21,678 nt of DNA from Deltaproteobacteria bacterium. GTDB taxonomy: Bacteria; Myxococcota_A; Polyangia; JAAYKL01. The notes beneath the pieces were generated by a model. It saw only the letters and a program-made list of their open reading frames with translations, ran no database searches and had not been told where the DNA came from. The stretch is from positions 1 through 21,678 of the forward strand of contig JAABTR010000095.1 of the NCBI GenBank assembly GCA_011389755.1, written 5' to 3'. A program made the translations under genes and the position numbers. This document shows, piece by piece, positions 1-15,821 of this stretch (positions are counted from its first letter, which is position 1; each line of letters opens with the position of its first letter).

Positions 1-1376
1 CTGTCGAATGTAGCCAGGAAATCCTGATCGAAAACAAAATTGCCTAGGCTGTAGACGATGAGCCGCTCCTTGTACCACTCCATGCCTTGAAGCACGTGGG
101 GATGATGAGCGATAACGAGGTGTGCGCCGGCGTCAATCGCCGCGCGCGCCGCTTTTCGGATGGTGTTCGAAGGACTCGGTTGGAATTGAAAGCCGCAGTG
201 TAGCTGCGCGATCATGATGTCGACTTGAGAAGCGAGCTTTTCGATTGCCTCGACCGAATCGGTGGTGCTCCACTGGGCAGCGCCTCCATGCCCGCGCCGA
301 GCAATCCAGTCTTGCATTTCGGGATAGACCGAATCAATCGACGACCAGGCATCAGCCCGGGTTTGCTGAGACAAACTCGGCTCGATCTCTTTGTACAGAG
401 CCCACACTTCTGCGATGCGTCGCGCCTCGAGGTCAACCGACCATTCCTTGCCGTCGAACCCCCACAGACGCTCCTCGTAGAGCCAGAGATCTTTATCGGG
501 GACGTTATCGGGGATTTCCTTGTCAGCACGCGGGTAATTGTCATTGACGAATGATCCTGTGACCGTAGTGTAAGCAATAGTTCCCACTTTGTAGGGTCCG
601 ACCTGGACAACCGTTCCGAGTTCGGCTTGTTTCTCGGTCAACCCCGCTCCCACAAAAGGTAATCGATTTTTCTCAAGAGCTTCGATGGTGTCTTGGATCC
701 CATCATCGAGCCAGTCGCGGGCGTGATTATTGGCGAGAACAGCCAGGTCGACTCCGAGAGCGTGGAGCCCTTGGAGGCTGTCGGGGTGCGACCGTAGCAA
801 AAAGCGCTTTCCCGGGTAGGCGCTGGAGTACGATTTTTTGGTAACGACGGTTTCCAAATTAACCGAGCAAAAATCGGCACAAGAAAAAGCGCGCCTCAAA
901 TATTCGACAACACTCCGTGCGCCAGATCCTTCCTCTCCGGACGGTAGGAGGGGCTCTCCATCTGTTGGCTCATTGTAACGGCGGCCGAACATGACATCTC
1001 CTCCAAAATGAAGAACGACTCGGTCGCCCCCGACATCTGACAGCATCACGACCCGAACATCGCTTCTGGAATCTTCCCATCCTACGGGAACCGGCTCGCT
1101 GAGATAGCCCTTCGCACGGGCGATGACCATCTCGGGTCCTGTGAGATTCCGAAGACGAGCGCGTCCTTTAGAGTTGGTGACCTCCTGATTGTGTCTGGTC
1201 TCCAGACTCACTCCCTTCAGTGCTTCCCCCTCCTCGTTCACCAGCACGAGCGAGACGTCAAATGTATCTCTGAGGCGCTCTGCCTCGCACGACGATGCGT
1301 AGGCTGGCGAGATGAGCGCTGTCGTGGCTAGGATCAGTTTTGAAAATTTCGTTATACGTTGTAGTAGATCTTCCAA
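1..1376 (-). CDS. CapA/PGA_cap-family (poly-gamma-glutamate-synthesis-like, metallophosphatase fold) putative lipoprotein; the C-terminus runs off the left edge
   Basis: Absent from the ORF track because it is open at the window edge. My minus-strand translation (codon low ends at 3,6,9...) is continuous from TTG 1376..1374: (M)EDLLQRITKFSKLILATTALISPAYASSCEAERL...DRVVLHFGGDVMFGRRYNEP...HALGVDLAVLANNHARDWLDDG...AIDAGAHLVIAHHPHVLQGMEWYKERLIVYSLGNFVFDQDFLATFD. These are the hallmark blocks of the PGA_cap/CapA family. An in-frame TAA at 1466..1464 bounds the start. No ATG or GTG lies between it and TTG 1376, and a purine-rich GAGAGTGAG sits just upstream. The N-terminus looks like a signal peptide ending in ASSC (lipobox-like). 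Confidence 0.8.
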   Translation of the reverse strand, partial: MEDLLQRITKFSKLILATTALISPAYASSCEAERLRDTFDVSLVLVNEEGEALKGVSLETRHNQEVTNSKGRARLRNLTGPEMVIARAKGYLSEPVPVGWEDSRSDVRVVMLSDVGGDRVVLHFGGDVMFGRRYNEPTDGEPLLPSGEEGSGARSVVEYLRRAFSCADFCSVNLETVVTKKSYSSAYPGKRFLLRSHPDSLQGLHALGVDLAVLANNHARDWLDDGIQDTIEALEKNRLPFVGAGLTEKQAELGTVVQVGPYKVGTIAYTTVTGSFVNDNYPRADKEIPDNVPDKDLWLYEERLWGFDGKEWSVDLEARRIAEVWALYKEIEPSLSQQTRADAWSSIDSVYPEMQDWIARRGHGGAAQWSTTDSVEAIEKLASQVDIMIAQLHCGFQFQPSPSNTIRKAARAAIDAGAHLVIAHHPHVLQGMEWYKERLIVYSLGNFVFDQDFLATFD

Positions 1377-1491
1377 TTGCTCACTCTCGCAGTTGGTGAA
1401 GGTCGCCCACTCGAGATGTTCGCTTCGGGGCTCAACCTTATTAACGACCGTTTTCCGAGACGTTTAAGGCTATATCGAGCCGGGGCGGGCG

Positions 1492-1546
1492 CCCCCTTTC
1501 AAGGTCCCCCTTTCAAGGTCCCCCTTTCAAGGTCCCCTTTCAAGGT
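1492..1546. repeat. Tandem direct repeat array A: 4 x CCCCCTTTCAAGGT (units 14,14,14,13 bp)
   Basis: Read directly: units at 1492-1505, 1506-1519, 1520-1533 and 1534-1546 (the last has 4 C). The core CTTTCAA is the reverse complement of the array B core. Confidence 0.95.
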
Positions 1547-1554
1547 CTCTGAGC

Positions 1555-1637
1555 GGTTGAAAGCGGCGGTTGAAAGCGGCGGTTGAAAGCGGCGGTTGAA
1601 AGCGGCGGTTGAAAGCGGGGTTGAAAGCGGTTGAAAC
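1555..1637. repeat. Tandem direct repeat array B: 7 x GGTTGAAAGCGGC with decaying unit length (13,13,13,13,12,10,9 bp)
   Basis: Read directly: units start at 1555, 1568, 1581, 1594, 1607, 1619 and 1629. The last unit is GGTTGAAAC. The array ends 8 bp from the stop codon (1648..1646) of the upstream minus-strand gene. Confidence 0.95.
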
Positions 1638-1645
1638 AGGCGGAG

Positions 1646-2692
1646 TCAGTTTTGGCGCTGGTCCCGCTCGGCTCGCATCTCATCCACTTGGCGCTTGTAG
1701 TCGGTGCGACGGGTGAGGAAGATCACCGCGCCGACGACGTTCAAGGAAATCGAGACGAAGTAGACCATCGACGCCGAGAGGATCATCGCTGCGCGGGACG
1801 AGGCGGTTGCGCCCTCCACTGCCCCGAGGATCTCCAAAAGTCCCATGAACGCGCCTTCGCGCAGGCCGATGCCGGCGATGGAAAGGGGGATCATCGTGGC
1901 GATCTGGGTCATGGGGCCGACCTTGAGCACCTGCTCCAGGGCCAGACCGGCGCCCAAGGCCAAGCTGTTGGCGTAGTAGGTCAGGAACCAAAACAGGTAA
2001 ACCATCAGCCCAAGTCCGATGGCGGCCACCAGGTGCCCCTTGCGCCGGCTGTAGGTGGTGAAGGCGTCTACCAGGCGCCCGAGCGGCTTTTCGAGCCGCG
2101 CCTTCAGCGGGAAGCGGAGCTTGAGCAGCGAGCGCAAGAGCCCCGGGCTGAAGAGCAGCACCAGAGCGACTACCAGCAAAAAGGCGAAGAAGGCGCCAAA
2201 AACGTACAGAAACTTTGCGTCGAGCGCATTGATGAAAAACGGTAGGGAGATCAGCACCAGAAGACCCAGCGAGAAAAAGGTGCCGATGAGCTTTTCGATG
2301 AGCACCACCGAGATCGAGGCCTCGGCCCGGCCAGTGTAGCGCGCAATGTCGTAGGCCTTGTAGGCTTCGAGGCCGACGCCGGTGGGCGTGAAGGTTCCCA
2401 AGAATCTTCCCACCAGGAAGGTCTTGACCGCATGGCCTAAGGGCACGTTGAGACTTTGGCCGGCCAGCAGCACCCTCCAGCGCAGGATCGAGAAGGTGAT
2501 GGCTCCGGCCTGGGCCGCGAGGGCGGCGAGAAACCAGGATGGCTGGTGCTGAAGCGAGGCGATGATGTCGTCGAAGTCGACCTGGAATCGTTTGAAAATC
2601 AGGTAGAGGATGAGCACGGTCACCCCGACTTTCAGAGCGTTGATAAGTAGTTTCTTTTTCAATGGAATCTCCTCTCGAAGAGTTTCGGACAC
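1646..2692 (-). CDS. Flippase-like / lysylphosphatidylglycerol-synthase-TM-region (UPF0104) family integral membrane protein
   Basis: Track ORF of 348 aa. It is a multi-pass membrane protein with an N-terminal KKKLLINALKVGVTVLILYLIFKRF, then FSILRWRVLL, GRFLGTFTPTGVGLEAYKAY and IPLSIAGIGLREGAF blocks typical of the LPG_synthase_TM family. The track start is GTG 2692 with no SD. An internal TTG at 2662 is preceded by GAGAGGAGA (2676..2668, 5-nt spacer) and may be the real start (338 aa). Confidence 0.8.
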   Translation of the reverse strand: MSETLREEIPLKKKLLINALKVGVTVLILYLIFKRFQVDFDDIIASLQHQPSWFLAALAAQAGAITFSILRWRVLLAGQSLNVPLGHAVKTFLVGRFLGTFTPTGVGLEAYKAYDIARYTGRAEASISVVLIEKLIGTFFSLGLLVLISLPFFINALDAKFLYVFGAFFAFLLVVALVLLFSPGLLRSLLKLRFPLKARLEKPLGRLVDAFTTYSRRKGHLVAAIGLGLMVYLFWFLTYYANSLALGAGLALEQVLKVGPMTQIATMIPLSIAGIGLREGAFMGLLEILGAVEGATASSRAAMILSASMVYFVSISLNVVGAVIFLTRRTDYKRQVDEMRAERDQRQN

Positions 2693-2759
2693 GGTGAAGG
2701 GGCGGATGCCGCCTCTCCATGATACAAGGTTGGCCCGTGGCCGGCTCTCTTGTTCGTTT

Positions 2760-4286: not shown

Positions 4287-4571
4287 CGTAACAGTTTCCA
4301 AAAAAGAAAAGAGCTTACTGAATGCATGATCATTGATCAATATCCGGCGAAGAGAGAAAGAGGCGATATACGGGTGAGTCTCGCGGTCCATTCTGGGTAT
4401 AAAAAGACCCAGGTGTGAATAGTAAGTAAGTCAAAAATGACCCGTTAGGGTTTCTCCCAATTCTAAAAAAGCCCACAAATTCAGGGGATTTTAGCGCGCG
4501 GTCGCTGGTCCGTTTTTTGCCGATGTACTTCATGTTCTGACGATAATCGGAGACCGATGAAGGAGAACGAT

Positions 4572-4640
4572 ATGGAAACGGCACGGCGCGTCGTCTTTTT
4601 GGGAGCTCTGCTCGGCGTGTTCGCTTCGAGCGCGGGCTGT
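4572..4640 (+). other. Predicted lipoprotein signal peptide of the giant protein (METARRVVFLGALLGVFASSAGC)
   Basis: A basic n-region (RR), a hydrophobic core and a lipobox-like S-A-G-C, with the Cys codon TGT at 4638-4640. Prediction by eye only. Confidence 0.6.
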
Positions 4641-7600
4641 GGTGATGAGGGCGGGTCGGCCAAGCCCGAGAAAGAGCCGGATGAGTCGACGAGCTGGCCT
4701 CTGGGGCCGGACGGGACGCTGGTGAGCTCCGCGGGGGCCGAGTACCTGGCCCACGAGGTCATCGTGCGGCCGGCCCAGGGCGCTTCGGTCGAAGACCTCG
4801 AAGCGGTGATTGAGGGGTTCGGCGCTCGTGTGCTCGACCAAGACACGCCCTTGGCTCGGCGCTTGGGCTACCTCAAGGTCAGCCTGCCCCAGAATGTCAT
4901 AGCGGATGAGGCCATCTCGTTTTTGTCCCAGCAGGGCATCGCCGAAAAAGCCGAGCGCAACTACGTGGTTGTGCTCGACGCCGAGCCGAACGACCCCTCG
5001 TTCGCGGAGCTGTGGGGCATGGCGAAGATATCGGCGCCGGCGGCCTGGGATCTGGCGACGGGCTCGAGAGATATCGTCGTCGCGGTGAGCGACACCGGGG
5101 TCGATTACACCCACGGCGATCTCGCGGCGAACATGTGGGTCAACGAAGGCGAAATCGCGGGCAACGGCGTGGACGACGACGGCAACGGCTACGTGGACGA
5201 CGCCCGGGGCTGGGACTTCGCCAGCGGAGACAACGACCCCCGGGACGACCACGGCCACGGGACCCACTGCTCGGGGACCATCGGCGGCGTGGGGGACAAC
5301 GGGATCGGGGTCGCCGGCGTCAACTGGCGGGTGCGCATCATGCCGGTGAAGTTTCTCACCTCGTCGGGGTCGGGCAGCCTCTGGAACGGCGCTCAGACGA
5401 TCATCTACGCGGCCGAGGCCGGAGCCGAGGTGGTGAGCGCCAGCTGGGGCTGCGCGGGTTGTTACGCGTCCTACGTCGAGGAGGCCATCGAAACCCTCCA
5501 TCAAGCGGGCGGGATCTTCGTGGCCGCCGCCGGGAACTCCTCGGTGGACGTCGACGCGACCCCTTACTACCCCGCAGCCTACCAGAACGACAACGTGGTG
5601 GCGGTCGCCGCGTCAACGCCGCAGGACACCCTGGCGTATTTTTCCAACTACGGAGCCCAGAAGGTCCACCTCGCGGCCCCCGGGACGAGCATCTTGAGCA
5701 CCTTGCCCAAAGACGGCTACGCGTCTTGGCAGGGCACGTCCATGGCGGCTCCCCATGTCGCCGGGGCCGCCGCGCTCTACCTCTCGCTCAAGGGCGAGAC
5801 CTCCCCTTCAGCTCTCAAGAACAAGCTGATGCTCACCACCGATCCGGTGCCGGCGCTCGACGGCGTCGTTGCTTCGGGAGGGCGACTCAACGTCAACACG
5901 CTCTTGCGTTCGGACGATGTGGCGCCGGACGCGCCCACGGACGTCCGCGCCACGGCCGGCACGCGAAGCGACGTGACCGTCAGCTGGACGGCTTCGCCCG
6001 GGGACGACGTGGTGAGCTACCGGGTGGCGTGGAGAAGCGGCCCGGGCGAGTATATGGACTCGAAGCTTGTGCCCCGGGACGCCACGAGCGCCCGCATCGG
6101 CGAGCTCGAAAACGGGGCGGCCCATTTCTTCGCCGTGCGCGCCTTGGACGCATCGGGCAACTGGAGCCCTTACTCGGACGAGGCCGTGGCAGTTCCTAAC
6201 GATGCCTCGGCGCCGCCCCAGGTGATCGATCTCAAAGCGTCCACCGCTTCGGGTTTGCCGGTCTCGGGACACGTGAGCTCGGCTTCCGGCGAGGCGTCAG
6301 ATGAGTACGCCGCCGCGCAGGCGATGGACGGCACTGTGGCCACGTCGTGGATTTCCCCGGCCCGAAGCGAGCCCACCGAGGAGTTCCTCCACATCGCTTT
6401 CGACGAGGGCGCAACCATCGATCGCGTCGTCTTGGTGGCGTCGCCGACCCACCCCCAGTTCTTTCCGGTGGATTTCGACATCGAGGTCTCCGAAGACGGC
6501 GGCGATTGGCGAGCCGTGGCCGGAAGGCGCGGCGTGGCGCTCGGCGCGGCCGAAGAGCTCGACTTGAGGTTCCCCGCGACCCCGGCCGCCAGGCTGCGGC
6601 TCAAGGTGCTGCGAGGGTTTGCGCATCCGTCGGGGTTTTACTACTCAGGCCTCGCTGAGATCGAGATCTTTCAGGTCTCGACGCGGCCGGACATGGTGGA
6701 GCTGCGCTTTACGGCGCCTGGCGATGACACCGGCGGCGGCCGCGCTCAGAGCTATGATATCCGCTACGCGAAAGCGCCCTTCGATGACTCCGGATTCGAC
6801 TCCGCGGTCTCGGCTCCGGCGCCGGCTCCTTCCGAGGCGGGGATCATGGAGCTGGTGCAGGTTGAGGGGCTCGAGGGTAACACCGTCTACTATTTCGCCC
6901 TAAAAGCGGTCGACGAAGCCGGGAACGTCTCGGCGATGTCGAACGTGGCCAGCACCTCCACCTTGGTGAAGCCGCCGGCCCCCATCGAGGATCTGTCGGT
7001 TCAGGAAAAAACGAGTGCCTCGGTGACGCTTTCGTGGACGGCCACCGGCGCGTCCGGGCATCAGGGCACCGCCGCGAGCTACGAGCTGCGCCATTCTCCT
7101 TTCCCCATCTCCGAGTCGACGTTCCTGGACGCCGCGGCCGTAGCCGGTGTTTTGGCGCCGGCGGCCGCGGGCACGGCCGAGACGTTTACGGTCACTGGGC
7201 TCGAGTCCGAAAAGCGCTACTACTTCGCCATTCGCGCCGTGGACGCGGTGGGGACCCCCGGCGGGATCTCCAACGTGGTGTCGGCGCGGACCACCGACGG
7301 CGTGGACGTGATCCCGCCGGCGCGCATCGGCGATCTTTTCGCCTTTGCTTTCTTTGAGGAAAACCTCGCCGCCGGCGTGGACGTCGAAGTGTCCAGCACG
7401 ATCAACGACTACTACAAAGGGGAAAACCTCATCGATGGAAACTCAAGCACCTATTGGATGAGCAGCTACGGAGAGCAGCTCGATCCCGAATGGGTCGTGG
7501 TCGACTACGGCCGGGTCATGCCGTTTAGCCGGTTCCGTTTTCTCCCGAGCTCGATAGGCACCTACTTGAGTTACGCCGCACGGGACTTCGACATCGAGCT

Positions 7601-10600
7601 GAGCGCCGGGGGAGACACCTGGCAGTCGGTGGTGCACGTCGAGGGACGGCTGGCGACCGGAGACTGGCAGCAGTGGCGCACCGATCCGGTGAGCGCCCGG
7701 TATCTTCGATTTCACGCCAAAAAGCGTGGAATCGGTGGGTGTTATGGAGACTACGGCTGTGTCCTCAAGATCCCGGTCGTCCTCTCCGAGATCGAGAGTT
7801 ACGCACTGACAGGGGAACTGAGCGCCGATCTCATGTGGGTGGCGCCCGGCGACGACGGCTTCGAAGGGACCGCGGCGCGCTACGACGTTCGGCGGTCTTT
7901 GCAGCCGCTGAGCGAAGCTTCGTTCGGCGGCGCCGAGCAGCTTTTGAGCCCGGCCCCGGGTCCGGCCGGGACCATCGAGATGGTGGGCGCGGGGCCGCTC
8001 GAGTGGGAGCGCGAGTACTGGTTCGCGGTCAAGGCCATCGACGCGGCGGGAAATGTCGGCGAGCTGTCCAACCTGGCCCGCGTCGAGACCCCGGGCATGC
8101 CGCCCGCGCCCATCAGCGATCTGACAGCTTCGAATCCGACGCGCACGAGCATCGATCTCAATTGGACCTCCACGGGCGATGACGGGTACGAAGGGCGAGC
8201 GTCCGCGTACGAGATCCGCTACCACACCGCGCCTGTGGACGCGCAAAACTGGCAGGCGGCCTCGGTGGTGGTCGGTGTGCCCGAGCCGGCGCCATCCGGA
8301 CAGGCCGAGCGATTCGTCGTCGATGGCCTCGAGCACAGCACGCGGTACTACTTTGCCGTCAAAGTCGCCGACGACGTGGGGCACGAGTCGTTATTGTCGA
8401 ACGTCGCCACAGCCTCTACCATCGACGGTGTGCCTCCACGGGCAGTGGAAGATCTGACAGCGGTTGGGGTGGACGACTCGGGCAGCAGGCCGCTTTTTGC
8501 CTCGGCTCTGGAAGCGAGCAGCGCCTACTCCTTTGCCATGGACGCCGAGAACCTCGTGGACGGCGATCCCCACACCGTCTGGCTCACCGAAGGGACCGCG
8601 GACGGCGGGCCCGAGTGGGTGATCCTGGGCCTCGACGAGGTCCGGTCGGTGACCGCGATCCGGCTCACGCCGGCAAATGGGTACCTCGATCTGTTCCCCA
8701 AAGCCTTCACCGTAGAGGTGCGCGATAGCGCAGACGCAGATTGGCGAACGGTGATGGAAGAAGGTGAGATGGAAATCAGCAGCGCCCCCGAAGAGTGGGC
8801 CATCGGCACCAACGACGTATTACAGGTGCGCCTTACGGCCACCGAGCTTGGGACCTGGAGCGGCGAAAGTTTTGCGGCCTTGTCCGAGATCGAGCTCATC
8901 GGCGACGCCGGGGGGACGTCGTCCATCGAGCTGTCCTGGACGGCCCCCGAAGACTTAGGAAGTGAAAGCGGCAAGGCGAGCGACTACGATATCCGCTCTG
9001 CGACGACGACGATCGTGACAGAATCCGATTTTGGCGCCGCCACAGGCATGCCGGCTCCGGTGCCCGCCCCCGCGGGAATCTTGGAAAGACTCGTCGTTCC
9101 AGGTCTGGAACCCGAAACCACCCGCTGTTTTGTTCTCAAATCCGAAGACGCGGCGGGCAACCGTTCGGGGTTGTCCAACTCGCCGTGCGCGACGGTCCCC
9201 GGTGCTTCGCCGGACGCCGTGGCGGATCTTCAAGCCACGGATGCCGCTGCCAATAGCGTTGCGCTCTCGTGGACCGCGCCGGACGACAACGGATCCGACG
9301 GGTTCTTGGACCGCTATGAGATCCGCTTCGCGACGTTCCGCATTCACTCGGAAAGTTGGGCCGACGCCGCGGTCGTGGCGGAGCCTCCCATTCCCGCCCA
9401 TGCGGGGACGACGCAGTCGTTTGTCGTCGAAGGGCTGACAGGCGACACCCTCTACCACTTCGCCCTCGTCGGCTTCGACGCGGCGGGGCGAGGAAGCGCC
9501 GTCTCCAACAACGCGGTGGCTAAAACCCTCGACGGCACGCCGCCAGGGGCGGTGGGTGACCTTGCGGCGGACGCGGTCGCGCCGTCCGCAGACAAAGTCG
9601 CCTCGGCGAAGGTGACCGCCGGCTCGAGCCGGTACTCCCTTGAGACGAGCCCTGACAAGGCCGGAGACGGCGACGCGGGGACTTTTTGGCTCAGCGAGGG
9701 GACGTCGGAGCCGACCACCCAGAGCTTGGAGATCGCGCTGGACGAGCCCAAGGCGGTGGGGCGCGTGGAGCTCTTGGGCGCTCCGGGGTACCTGGATCTC
9801 TTCCCCGTGGATTTTAGTATCGAGGTGCGGGCCTCGGCGTCGGACAGCTGGCGCACGGCTGTCAAAGAGACCGGGTTCGCGACCGATGGAGGGGCCGAGG
9901 AGTGGCTTTTGGGATCCCTTCAGGTGGCCCAGGCCCGTTTGGTGGTGACCGGCAGCGCTTCGTGGAACCAGAAGCACTACGCCGCGCTATCTGAGATCGT
10001 TTTCTATGAAGACACCACCGATCGCACGGCCATCCGGCTCTCGTGGACCGCGCCGGGCGACGACGCCGACCAGGGGATCGTGGCGCGTTACGATATGAGA
10101 GCTGCTGATGCGCTCATCGAGACCGAGCAGGACTACGCCGGCGCAACAAAGGTGGCGCTCCTTGATGACCCGAGGACTGCGGGATCCCTGGAGCGGGCCG
10201 AGGTGGCCGGGCTCGAGCCCGAGACCAGCTACTGCTTCGCCCTGACCGCGTGGGACGACTCCGATAACCGCTCGCCGCTCTCCAACTCCGCCTGCGCGAC
10301 CACCGCGGGCGTGCCCCCGGCGGCCGTGGTGGATCTCGCCGCGGTCTCGGCGGGCAGCGGCGCGGTGGAGCTCACCTGGACCGCGCCGGGCGCCGACGCC
10401 AATGTGGGCACCGCGGCACAGTACGAGCTGCGCTACGCACCGGAGCGGATCACCTCCCAGAGCTGGGATGAGGCTGCGGTGGTGGAGATCCATATCGCGC
10501 CGAAAGCGGCGGGGAGCGCCGAGTCTTTCCTCATCGAAGGGCTCGAAGGGGCCAGCGAGTACTTCTTCGTGATACGCGCTCTCGACGATGCGGGGAATGC

Positions 10601-13600
10601 GGGCGGCTTGTCCAACAACGCCTCGGTGACCACGGACGACGACGTGGATCCCTCCTCTATAAACGACCTGGCTGCGGCGACGAACGCCGCGGGGTGGGGG
10701 CTTCTGAGCCTCTCGTGGACCGCGCCGGGGGACGATGGGCTGGAAGGCACCGCCGACCACTACGAGCTGCGCTGGTCCGATTCTTCCATCGACGCGAACA
10801 ACTTCGGGTCGGCGAACGCGGCGATCGCGCCCGCGCCGCTGCCCGCCGGGAGCACCCACAACTTCACGTTGTCTGACTTGCCCCCCGAGCGAGAGATCTA
10901 CGTGGCGATGCGGGCCTTTGACGACGCCGGCAACGGCTCGATCCTCTCAAACGTCGCCTCGGCGCGGACCCGGGACGAGGCTCCCGGCCGGATCGCCGAC
11001 CTCCGCGTGAGCGAGGCACAGGCAGAAGAAGACGGTTCGGTGACCGTGACCTTGTCGTGGACCGCGCCCGGTGACGACGCCGGTGTGGGGACCGCCGCGG
11101 CGTACGACATTCGGTACAGCGACGGCCCCTTGGGGGACTCGAGCTTCGGATCCGCCGCGCAGGTTCAAAATACACCGGCGCCCGGCCCGGCGGGCACGGC
11201 CCACGCGGTCTCCATCGCCGGACTCGCGGGCGGCAAAATCTACCGCTTCGCCATGAAGACGGTGGATGAAAGACAAAACTGGTCGGCCTTGTCCAACGTG
11301 GTGCAAGGCACGACCCCGGACGAGGTGGCGCCCGCCGCGGTGAGCGATCTCTTCGCCGTCACCGGGACCTCGCGGGGCACGGTCACTTTGACGTGGACCT
11401 CAACGGGCGATGACGGGACCGAGGGATCGGCCGCCGGGTACGAGCTGCGGTACTCGGATAGGGCCATCGACGCGAATAACTTCGAGCAGGCCACCCGCGC
11501 CGCCTACCAGCCGGGGGGAGGGCCTGCCGGGATCGATCGGAGCTTCACGGCTCAGGCGCTGCCCGACGAGACGCTCTTGTACTTCGCCATGAAGGCTTTT
11601 GACGACTCGGGGAACGTCTCCGGGCTGTCGAACGCGGTCTCCGCCCGCACCCCGGATGTTTTGCCCATCAAGATATCGAACCTCGCGGTGACCGAGCGGC
11701 GCCTGACCGGGCTGACGGTCTCTTTCACCGCCCCGGGCGACGACGCCACGAGCGGGGTGACCGAGCAGTACGATCTCAGAGTCAGCACCAGCGGGATTAC
11801 CACGGACACCTTTGCCCAGGCGACCCGAGTGGACACACCGATCCCGCAGCACGCCGGGACCACCGAGAGCATCGCCATCGACGGGCTCGAAGGCAACACG
11901 ACGTACTACGTGGCGATCAAGGCGATGGACGATCGCGGCAACTGGTCGGCGCTCTCGAACGTGCTCGTCGCGGCGACCCGGGACGCTCTGGCGCCGGGGC
12001 AGATCGAGGATCTGGCGGCGACCACGGCCGGGACCGACGGGGCGATCGATCTGACCTGGCACGCCCCTGGTGACGACGGGGACGTGGGACGAGCCGAGGC
12101 CTATGAGCTGCGCCGAGCGCTCGGCCCCATCGACGCGTCGAACTGGAGCTCGGCCACGGTGGTGACAGGATTGCCCCGGCCCGGGAGCGCGGGAGCCGCC
12201 GAGAGGTGGACGGTGTTCGCCCTCCAGGGCGAGACGCGCCACTACTTTGCCATCAAGGCGATCGACGCCGACGGCAACGAAGGAGCACTATCTCCTCCGG
12301 CCTCGGCCGAGACCCGGCCCGTGCCGCCGGCCCCGGTGGGCGACCTGCTGGCGCGGGCGGCGTCCCAGGCTGTGGTGCTCGAGTGGACCGCGCCCGGGGA
12401 CGACGGAAACGAAGGGATAGCGTCTCGTTACGAGATCCGCTATTCGACCGTGGCGATAGACAAGTACAACTTCCACGCGGCGACCGCCATCGGGAACCCG
12501 CCGTCGCCCCTGCGCGCCGGGTCGGCCCAGAGCGTGACCGTGACCGGGCTGGCCGAGTCCACCCGCTACTGGTTCGCCCTCAAGGCGACGGACGACAAGG
12601 GTGCGACGAGCACCATCTCCAACATCGCCACCGTGGTGACCCTCGACGAGACGGGTCCGGCCGCGGTCTCGGCCCTGTCGGTGGACTGTCCGCCCATCGG
12701 CGGGGGATCTTTGCCGCTGGTCGCCGCCGAGGTCAGCTCCGAGCTGTCCGAGTCGGTGGGCGCGCGCAGCGCCATCGATGGCCGCTTCGATACCGCGTGG
12801 GTCTCCGATGCGGCCGAAGAGGCGACAGCCGAGAGCCTCCTTGTGGATCTGGGGACGTCACGCAGTGTGGACGCCGTGCGGCTGCTCCCCCATGAAGGAT
12901 ACCTGGAGCTGTTTCCCCGGACGTTCACCATGGAGGCGAGCCTCGACCGGGCGAACTGGACCCCGGTGCACACCGTGGACTGGTTCGAGGCCGCCATGAC
13001 CGGCTGGCACACCTGGGGCTTCGCTCCGGTGCCGGCACGGTTCATCCGGCTGCTCACCGACGACGCGCCCGCGAGCTACTTCGGTCTGCACTACACGGTG
13101 CTCGCCGAGCTGCGGGTGGTGGAGGCTCGGGCGCTGGACGGTCGGGCCAAGCTCACCTGGTTCGCGCCGGGCGACGACGGGAACGCGGGCACCGCAAAAT
13201 ACTACGAGGTCTTCGTGCACACAGGCCCCTTCGGCGAAGAAAACCTGGGCGAGGTGGAGCTCGTGTCCGGAGCGCCGATTCCCCAGGTGGCCGGCACCCT
13301 CCAGTCCATGTGGGTGGGCGAGCTCGACGGCGAGCGGGACTACTACTGGGCGTTGCGCGCAGTGGACGAGGTGGGCAACGTCGGAGCGCTGTCCCAGGTG
13401 GCGGTGGCGCGCACCCAGGACATTCCTCCGGCCCGGGTCGGAGATCTCGAGGCGATCGACGCGGGGCAGACCGAGCTCACCTTGGTGTGGACCGCGCCGG
13501 GGGACGACGGGCACCGCGGCACCGCCGCCGAGTACGAGATTCGCTTTGACACGAGGCAGTTCACCACAGAGGGCTTCCCCCTGGCCGATCTCGTCTCTTC

Positions 13601-15821: not shown

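Follow-up and report, generated by a model that had tools for sequence, protein, structure and literature searches.

The precursor of deseasin MCP-01, an S8 subtilase of Pseudoalteromonas sp. SM9913, starts with an N-terminal propeptide, and the enzyme has binding domains of the beta-sandwich type towards its C-terminus; it is of moderate size, with one protease domain and a C-terminal domain of the PKD type. The cell-envelope proteinases and C5a peptidases (lactocepin PrtP, ScpA/ScpB) are surface-associated enzymes in which the S8 domain is followed by FN3-type spacer or adhesin domains, with a protease-associated (PA) domain insert and a C-terminal LPXTG anchor. Among cysteine peptidases, gingipain R (RgpB) belongs to family C25 of clan CD. 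Here we describe a giant gene whose product has an S8 subtilase at one end and a C25-like domain at the other. It lies in a stretch of 21,678 nucleotides from a member of the Myxococcota_A (Deltaproteobacteria bacterium, assembly GCA_011389755.1, contig JAABTR010000095.1), the whole of which we call the window. On balance, we think it probable that this is a single genuine gene for an exported multidomain dual protease, that it arose as a fusion of two protease types otherwise found in separate genes, and that the cut removing the propeptide would set the chain free.

Layout of the gene and its subtilase end

An open reading frame (ORF) scan of the window gave a single stop-free frame of 3,754 codons from 4557 to 15821 on the forward strand. 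The ATG at 4572, which has AAGGAG six bases upstream, opens an 11.25-kb gene for a product of 3,749 amino acids, and an in-frame alternative ATG stands at 4557. Residue numbers in this text (e.g., Asp179, His3586) are counted from ATG 4557 in the 3,754-residue frame. The 3,749-residue product is 100% identical to P0241 of the protein collection, where it forms a singleton cluster from an NCBI contig of 21,758 nucleotides, nearly all of which the window covers. A first-pass annotation made from the letters alone had claimed one unbroken 11.25-kb frame with a Shine-Dalgarno-supported ATG at 4572, and on both points it was right. The features of the gene are as follows.

4572..15821, + strand: whole gene, 3,749 codons plus stop, with a Shine-Dalgarno-supported ATG; product identical to P0241
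4572..4640, + strand: signal peptide ending in a lipobox-like SSAG before the Cys, which is residue 28 counted from 4557 and residue 23 of the 3,749-residue product
4716..4961, + strand: subtilase propeptide, Fervidolysin_NPro-like, residues 54-135 (PF22148, 22.8 bits, cutoff 21)
4986..5927, + strand: S8 catalytic domain, residues 144-457 (PF00082; 3vv3 alignment over the same residues)
5928..14510, + strand: stalk of 18 FN3-like and 6 F5/8C (discoidin) domains (hidden Markov models of its own repeats, Pfam, NCBIfam)
6279-6602, 7386-7712, 8511-8834, 9618-9941, 12729-13052 and 13845-14165, + strand: the discoidin domains (hidden Markov models)
14532..14693, + strand: Cys-rich linker with 8 Cys, residues 3326-3379 (from the Cys positions)
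14700..15818, + strand: C25-like (clan CD) domain, residues 3382-3754, 373 amino acids (PF01364, invariant His/Cys, AlphaFold2 model)
15312, 15420 and 15162, + strand: putative catalytic His3586 and Cys3622, and acidic Asp3536, respectively (alignments, RgpB register)

The N-terminal domain looks like a standard, competent subtilase, as judged from its catalytic triad and oxyanion Asn. Peptidase_S8 (PF00082) matches residues 171-428 at 185.6-189.5 bits (cutoff 21.8), and 151 subtilases in the Protein Data Bank (PDB) match the domain at E <= 1e-10. The nearest solved relative is deseasin MCP-01 (3vv3), aligned over residues 144-457 with an E value of 1.8e-85 and 290 bits. Asp179 (nucleotide 5091, in VAVSDTGVD), His234 (5256, in HGTH) and Ser395 (5739, in GTSMAAPH) stand exactly where the first-pass annotation had put the triad, and the oxyanion Asn327 (5535, in AAAGN) is present as well. 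That annotation had also called the propeptide I9-like; a propeptide is there, but it matches the fervidolysin-type prodomain model and not I9 as such.

Between the two ends runs the stalk, in which hidden Markov models refined iteratively on its repeats return the very 18 FN3-like and six discoidin domains that had been counted by reading. With FN for an FN3-like repeat and D for a discoidin domain, the order is S8, FN, [D-FN-FN]x3, D, FNx8, D-FN-FN, D-FN, Cys-rich linker, C25-like. Pfam gives the stalk 325 bits for fn3 and 277 bits, in six stretches, for F5_F8_type_C. The FN3-like repeats are of the WTAPGDDG type, and the discoidin domains are classed as glycan-binding from their matches to glycan-binding models (NADase_discoid, 96.9 bits against a cutoff of 38, and a NedA-like galactose-binding domain). 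As for the Cys-rich repeat proposed to follow them, residues 3326-3379 do hold eight Cys, but the TIGR02232 match stays below threshold (16.7 bits, cutoff 20.8), as does that to DUF4215 (14.6-16.9 bits, cutoff 27). Some relatives have Dicty_CTDC or EGF-type Cys-rich repeats in the linker's place, before the C25-like domain.

The signal peptide, METARRVVFLGALLGVFASSAGC, matches a permissive PROSITE-type lipobox pattern, {DERK}(6)-[LIVMFWSTAG](2)-[LIVMFYSTAGCQ]-[AGS]-C. Moreover, a Cys stands right after the hydrophobic core of the signal peptide in all nine of the closest S8 homologues with an intact N-terminus, several of them with canonical lipoboxes (LAGC, LVAC, LGGC), which makes lipidation of the precursor likely. 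A precursor that leaves through Sec and probably receives a lipid at the Cys after the signal peptide would be a tethered zymogen, with this lipid on the S8 propeptide and with the propeptide acting as both folding chaperone and inhibitor. In the 3vv3 alignment, the mature chain of MCP-01 starts three residues before residue 144 of the giant protein, at the equivalent of residue 141, and because of this a cut near Ala141/Glu142 is to be expected. Autocatalytic removal of the propeptide at about this position would activate the MCP-01-like S8 domain and, since the lipid would sit on the propeptide, the same cut should detach a chain of ~3,600 amino acids from the membrane anchor. The freed chain would begin with a serine protease, continue as a rod built from the 18 FN3-like and six discoidin domains, and end in a clan CD cysteine peptidase with a His3586/Cys3622 dyad. 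At ~3.5-4 nm per domain, the rod would be roughly 80-90 nm long if fully extended. Its discoidin domains may hold the protein on glycan-bearing material, whether the cell's own surface or matrix, the envelopes of other cells, or particulate glycoprotein, and the material so held would be digested by both proteases, which differ in catalytic class and presumably also in specificity.

The main rival to this scheme of release is a permanent lipid-anchored stalk, with the S8 domain near the membrane and the C25-like head ~85 nm out, which would make the protein a contact-dependent adhesin-protease; the first-pass annotation had likewise pictured a lipid-anchored stalk presenting two heads. Such a stalk would fit the presence of the lipobox Cys in the S8 homologues, and its discoidin domains could bind target glycans. 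In addition, the stand-alone C25-like proteins and the multidomain relative P0242, both described below, have N-terminal lipoboxes, so that anchoring of a C25-like head, be it on a stalk or not, appears to be a recurrent design. However, the lipobox Cys of the giant protein lies upstream of the S8 propeptide, and mature MCP-01 begins after its propeptide, so that maturation should sever the anchor; if the propeptide stayed uncleaved, it would normally keep the S8 domain inhibited, as is general for subtilases. The homology to MCP-01 thus speaks against the anchored picture, which we regard as rather unlikely.

The C25-like domain and its family

Peptidase_C25 (PF01364) matches within the last 373-473 amino acids at 29.1-30.1 bits (gathering score 23, E ~4e-7 to 7.5e-7), covering positions 98-372 of the 374 in the profile; no NCBIfam model matches the C-terminal domain. 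Across the family, PF01364 matches 28 of 47 members, the best at 9.7e-18, and His3586 and Cys3622 (His205 and Cys241 of the domain) are invariant in alignments of 45 and 47 sequences. An AlphaFold2 model built with the family alignment has a mean local confidence (pLDDT) of 94.7 and a predicted TM-score (pTM) of 0.94, and in it the His and the Cys each come just after a beta-strand. Against the PDB, Foldseek ranks clan CD folds highest, namely SAVED-CHAT, Csx29, separase, caspase-9 and caspase-3. A fragment of RgpB, residues 13-348, was recovered from the printed alignment of a canonical C25 protein found next to a family member (locus L081) and was used for hhalign. In the resulting register (E 0.003, probability 10%), His3586 falls on RgpB His211, Cys3622 on Cys244 and Asp3536 on Glu152, and the LLxG(D/E)LP motif of the family, at the end of the N-terminal alpha/beta subdomain, is aligned with LLVGDHKDIP of RgpB. 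The gingipain/C25-like end with a His...Cys pair, as first proposed, is thus borne out by a Peptidase_C25 match that is significant in the last 373 amino acids and by a pair that aligns with His211 and Cys244.

On these grounds we file the C-terminal domain as a distant peptidase domain of family C25 (clan CD) without the gingipain prodomain and C-terminal domains, and it is probably active as a cysteine peptidase. It is preceded by the Cys-rich linker only and ends the protein, and the Pfam and NCBIfam searches found no gingipain-type prodomain, immunoglobulin (Ig)-like domain or type IX secretion system (T9SS) domain. Those additional domains define the gingipains proper and not the Pfam family as a whole.

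A helical tail of ~50 residues closes the domain, with a conserved terminal Y....P.FF motif (window 15700-15818, the last ~40 residues). It is common to the closer relatives and absent from the distant ones, in which matches stop near domain residue 320-330. The tail may be a latency peptide, like the C-terminal prodomain of legumain, or simply structural. The fold matches to CHAT and Csx29 also prompted us to consider a role in a defence system, which we rejected, as PADLOC gave no match for the domain and the protein is exported.

The family to which the domain belongs is sizeable and is captured only partly by current family models. Clustered at 50% identity, it comprises 1,399 representatives that match at E <= 1e-3, and 410 of these reach E <= 1e-30; its named members come mainly from metagenome-assembled genomes of Myxococcota/Deltaproteobacteria and of Spirochaetota. 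The closest members are ~400-440 amino acids long and, among those listed, mostly stand-alone lipoproteins. In these stand-alone members the domain starts soon after the lipobox Cys; a loose pattern places a lipobox directly before it in 48 of 73, and more are seen by eye. In distant members the domain lies near the N-terminus and is followed by T9SS tails, FlgD-Ig, dockerin and similar domains. Searches of the literature on a combination of S8 with C25, or on the C25-like family in myxobacteria, returned nothing relevant.

Two kinds of neighbour recur at loci of the family. In 35 of ~160 loci, the divergent upstream gene of a stand-alone C25-like lipoprotein gene encodes a PilZ-domain membrane protein of ~400 amino acids with two PilZ domains (PF07238, 80.8 bits; e.g., L074 5860-7062, - strand), which hints at a partner linked to cyclic di-GMP for part of the family. 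Clustering of the neighbours revealed no other conserved partner, and the PilZ gene is absent from the window of the giant gene. In eight loci, a canonical C25 protein adjoins the C25-like member; the one in L081 (1986-5426, 1,146 amino acids) matches gingipain R in the PDB (4ief, 1cvr) at 5.9e-9. The two branches of C25 therefore co-occur in some genomes.

A broader interpretation, which we put forward only tentatively, is that the C-terminal domain represents a large uncharacterised branch of clan CD, reached by Pfam only near its threshold and made up of surface-tethered, prodomain-less peptidases. The giant gene would then be such an enzyme fused through a glycan-binding rod of ~85 nm to a lipoprotein-tethered subtilase, with release coupled to zymogen activation.

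The C25-like domain might instead be a processing or sortase-like enzyme that, like PorU, works at the cell surface, where it would cleave or attach the giant protein itself or its partners. Family C25 includes the PorU-type processing enzyme, and a His/Cys dyad would also be consistent with transpeptidation. According to Zhang et al. 2012 (PMC3482391), large bacterial surface proteins may contain caspase-like domains that serve as autoprocessing modules. Set against this, neither a T9SS-type C-terminal domain nor a sorting signal was seen in the giant protein with Pfam and NCBIfam, most members of the family are simple lipoproteins of ~400 amino acids, and the PilZ protein of the 35 loci is the only conserved partner gene across the family. 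We consider this reading improbable.

Rarity of the fusion and integrity of the gene

The relatives sampled were those sharing two peptide patterns or ranked among the best 120-150, and distant proteins with both S8 and C25 may lie outside that sample. It provided 161 loci with a C25-like domain (80 species-representative genomes, 80 metagenome contigs and L002), none of which has an S8 domain within 10 kb of it, and the largest stop-to-stop ORF hosting the domain encodes 985 amino acids. In the lists of the best 120 relatives of each end, the Pfam domain of the other protease appears in neither. The first-pass annotation knew of no characterised protein that combines S8 and C25 ends, and among the relatives sampled we found none either.

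The two halves do occur apart. The closest S8 relative, P0121, is the head of an S8-FN3-discoidin gene of ~8.7 kb (L001 10001-18717), which gene prediction breaks into four genes that overlap or adjoin, its frame changing 2, 3, 2, 3, 1 through frameshifts in an assembly of 2.27x coverage. This L001 giant lacks a C25-like domain and has another C-terminal module, whose T2SS-G-like match is weak (17 bits); because of this difference, the C-terminal heads of S8-FN3-discoidin giants seem to be exchangeable. With the last 673 amino acids as the query, the only multidomain relative found was P0242, a hypothetical protein of 884 amino acids from JGI metagenome 3300048071, which comes closest to the C-terminal third of the giant protein (47% identity across 73% of the query) and consists of a lipobox, a discoidin domain, two FN3 domains, a short Cys-rich linker and the C25-like domain. 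As the S8 giant on the one hand and the C25-like lipoproteins and P0242 on the other occur separately, the simplest reading of the domain content is that the gene is a rare fusion of two extracellular protease architectures that are otherwise found in separate genes. Both protease parts are enzymes of known kinds, and multidomain exported proteases are known; what is notable is their pairing at the two ends of one very long stalk and the position of the candidate anchor on the propeptide.

The same observations could be explained by an assembly artefact, in which two genes of related metagenome populations, one of the type S8-FN3-discoidin and the other discoidin-FN3-C25-like, were joined in frame into a chimera. 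The giant protein is a singleton on one contig, its half-architectures exist as separate genes in L001 and P0242, and its repeat units are modular. However, the gene runs for 11.25 kb without a frame break, and its G+C content at third codon positions (GC3) is even along its length (0.80-0.90; S8 0.89, stalk 0.84, C25-like 0.86). The FN3 repeats share a mean of 39% and a maximum of 55% amino acid identity and the discoidin repeats a mean of 29%; at the DNA level, the longest exact repeat within the ORF is 21 nucleotides, and blastn self-matches reach ~80% or less over <100 nucleotides. The repeats are thus old and too divergent for collapse or mis-joining, and there is little within the gene that an assembler could have joined wrongly. 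Furthermore, the discoidin-FN3 module of P0242 is equally distant from the last module of the giant protein and from its internal modules, and gave no lead on the origin of the last stalk module. The giant gene is probably not an assembly artefact, and the chance that it is such a chimera appears slim.

The overall G+C content of the ORF (0.65-0.72) exceeds that of its neighbours (0.53-0.61), which raised the question of a foreign origin. This was rejected because the GC3 resembles that of several neighbours (GlgB 0.81, the LPG-synthase-like gene 0.82), and the excess lies at codon position 2, where it reflects a composition rich in Ala, Gly, Ser, Asp and Thr.

It is very improbable that the protein is polymorphic-toxin-like, with a stalk that delivers a C-terminal caspase-like toxin into or onto competitors and S8 as the releasing protease, for although proteins of that type have been described with caspase-like C-terminal toxin modules, with subtilisin among their processing proteases and with discoidin among their adhesion domains (Zhang et al. 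2012, PMC3482391), and the C-terminal module does differ between our giant and that of L001, no immunity gene accompanies it (downstream lies a convergent ferredoxin gene), Pfam and NCBIfam found no RHS, filamentous-haemagglutinin, PAAR or other trafficking domain, the relatives are mostly stand-alone lipoproteins and not cassette-like toxin tips, and the S8 domain lies at the opposite end from the supposed toxin instead of adjoining it.

Several observations weigh against our own account of a genuine gene for a released dual protease. The gene is known from a single contig of one metagenome-derived assembly and has no second, independent one; Logan contig L163, an independent assembly with 84% nucleotide identity, ends in the CdhD-like gene and covers the right-hand neighbours only, so it gives no independent confirmation of the giant gene. 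The lipobox-like SAGC of the first-pass annotation holds for the permissive pattern given above but not for the strict one, [LVI][ASTVI][GAS]C, as position -3 of SSAGC is Ser, and signal peptidase I might instead cleave after SSA. In some subtilases the propeptide remains bound, which makes release from the anchor uncertain. At the other end, the TM-scores of the Foldseek matches are low (0.35-0.39), gingipain is absent from the 50 best of them, PDB searches with the domain sequence and two family profiles returned neither gingipain nor anything else relevant, and the hhalign comparison of the 47-sequence profile with the RgpB fragment, over 207 columns, has a probability of only 10% at its E value of 0.003.

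The giant gene is flanked by a divergent AbgT transporter gene on one side and by the convergent ferredoxin gene downstream. Further neighbours encode an LPG-synthase-like membrane protein (1646-2692, - strand; LPG_synthase_TM, 105.9 bits), a CdhD-like protein, GlgB, a RES/Xre pair and a DUF2267 protein. They are unrelated to secretion, maturation or immunity, in agreement with the earlier remark that no secretion, chaperone or immunity gene is adjacent. The first-pass annotation had also proposed attack on prey or on biofilm matrix, or surface-layer processing, as possible roles; these are speculative, and no feature of the locus speaks to any of them. The RES-domain toxin (19752-20504, - strand) and the Xre-like antitoxin (20464-20859, - strand; Xre-like-HTH with an MbcA/ParS C-terminal domain) form a toxin-antitoxin pair that is kept at 84% nucleotide identity in L163. 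An ORF at 1680-2720 (- strand), which overlaps the LPG-synthase-like gene in another frame and has no family match, was rejected as a shadow ORF of G+C-rich sequence. No ORF with a family match was found in window 1-1645, and no RNA family or tRNA in the window. Just beyond the 3' end of the minus-strand LPG-synthase-like gene, two adjacent tandem arrays of 13-nucleotide units occupy 1493-1546 and 1553-1643, (CCCCTTTCAAGGT)x4 and (GCGGTTGAAAGCG)x6, whose cores, TTTCAA and TTGAAA, are reverse complements.

Comparison with known systems

Provided that the gene is genuine and that both of its ends have activity, it places a serine endopeptidase and a cysteine endopeptidase on one very long glycan-binding rod, and the protein would be a case for how bacteria combine specificities and reach on complex, glycan-coated protein substrates. 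Because the anchor would be carried by the propeptide, a single event could both activate the enzyme and release it from the cell. Neither the fusion, for which the evidence is a single metagenomic contig, nor the mechanism of release overturns anything known. A by-product of the analysis is the C25-related lipoprotein family itself, for which we did not find a published characterisation.

Among described proteases, deseasin MCP-01 has the Asp/His/Ser triad in common with the S8 domain of the giant protein but, unlike it, has no lipobox, no stalk of 24 domains and no second protease. In contrast to PrtP and ScpA/ScpB, the giant protein has a predicted N-terminal lipid on the propeptide as its sole candidate anchor and shows no PA domain match in the Pfam and NCBIfam tables; its stalk is far longer, and its C-terminus is a second protease. 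With gingipain R (RgpB; 1cvr, 4ief) the C-terminal domain shares the succession of His and then Cys and a Peptidase_C25 match above threshold, whereas the relationship is very distant and the prodomain, the Ig-like domain and the T9SS C-terminal domain of the gingipain type are lacking. As the region of the S1 residue Asp163 of RgpB falls in an alignment gap, the specificity of gingipain cannot be transferred to the C25-like domain. P0242 likewise has an N-terminal lipobox, discoidin, FN3 domains of the PGDD type, a short Cys-rich linker and the C25-like domain, but it has no S8 domain, and where it has one discoidin and two FN3 domains, the giant protein has six and eighteen.

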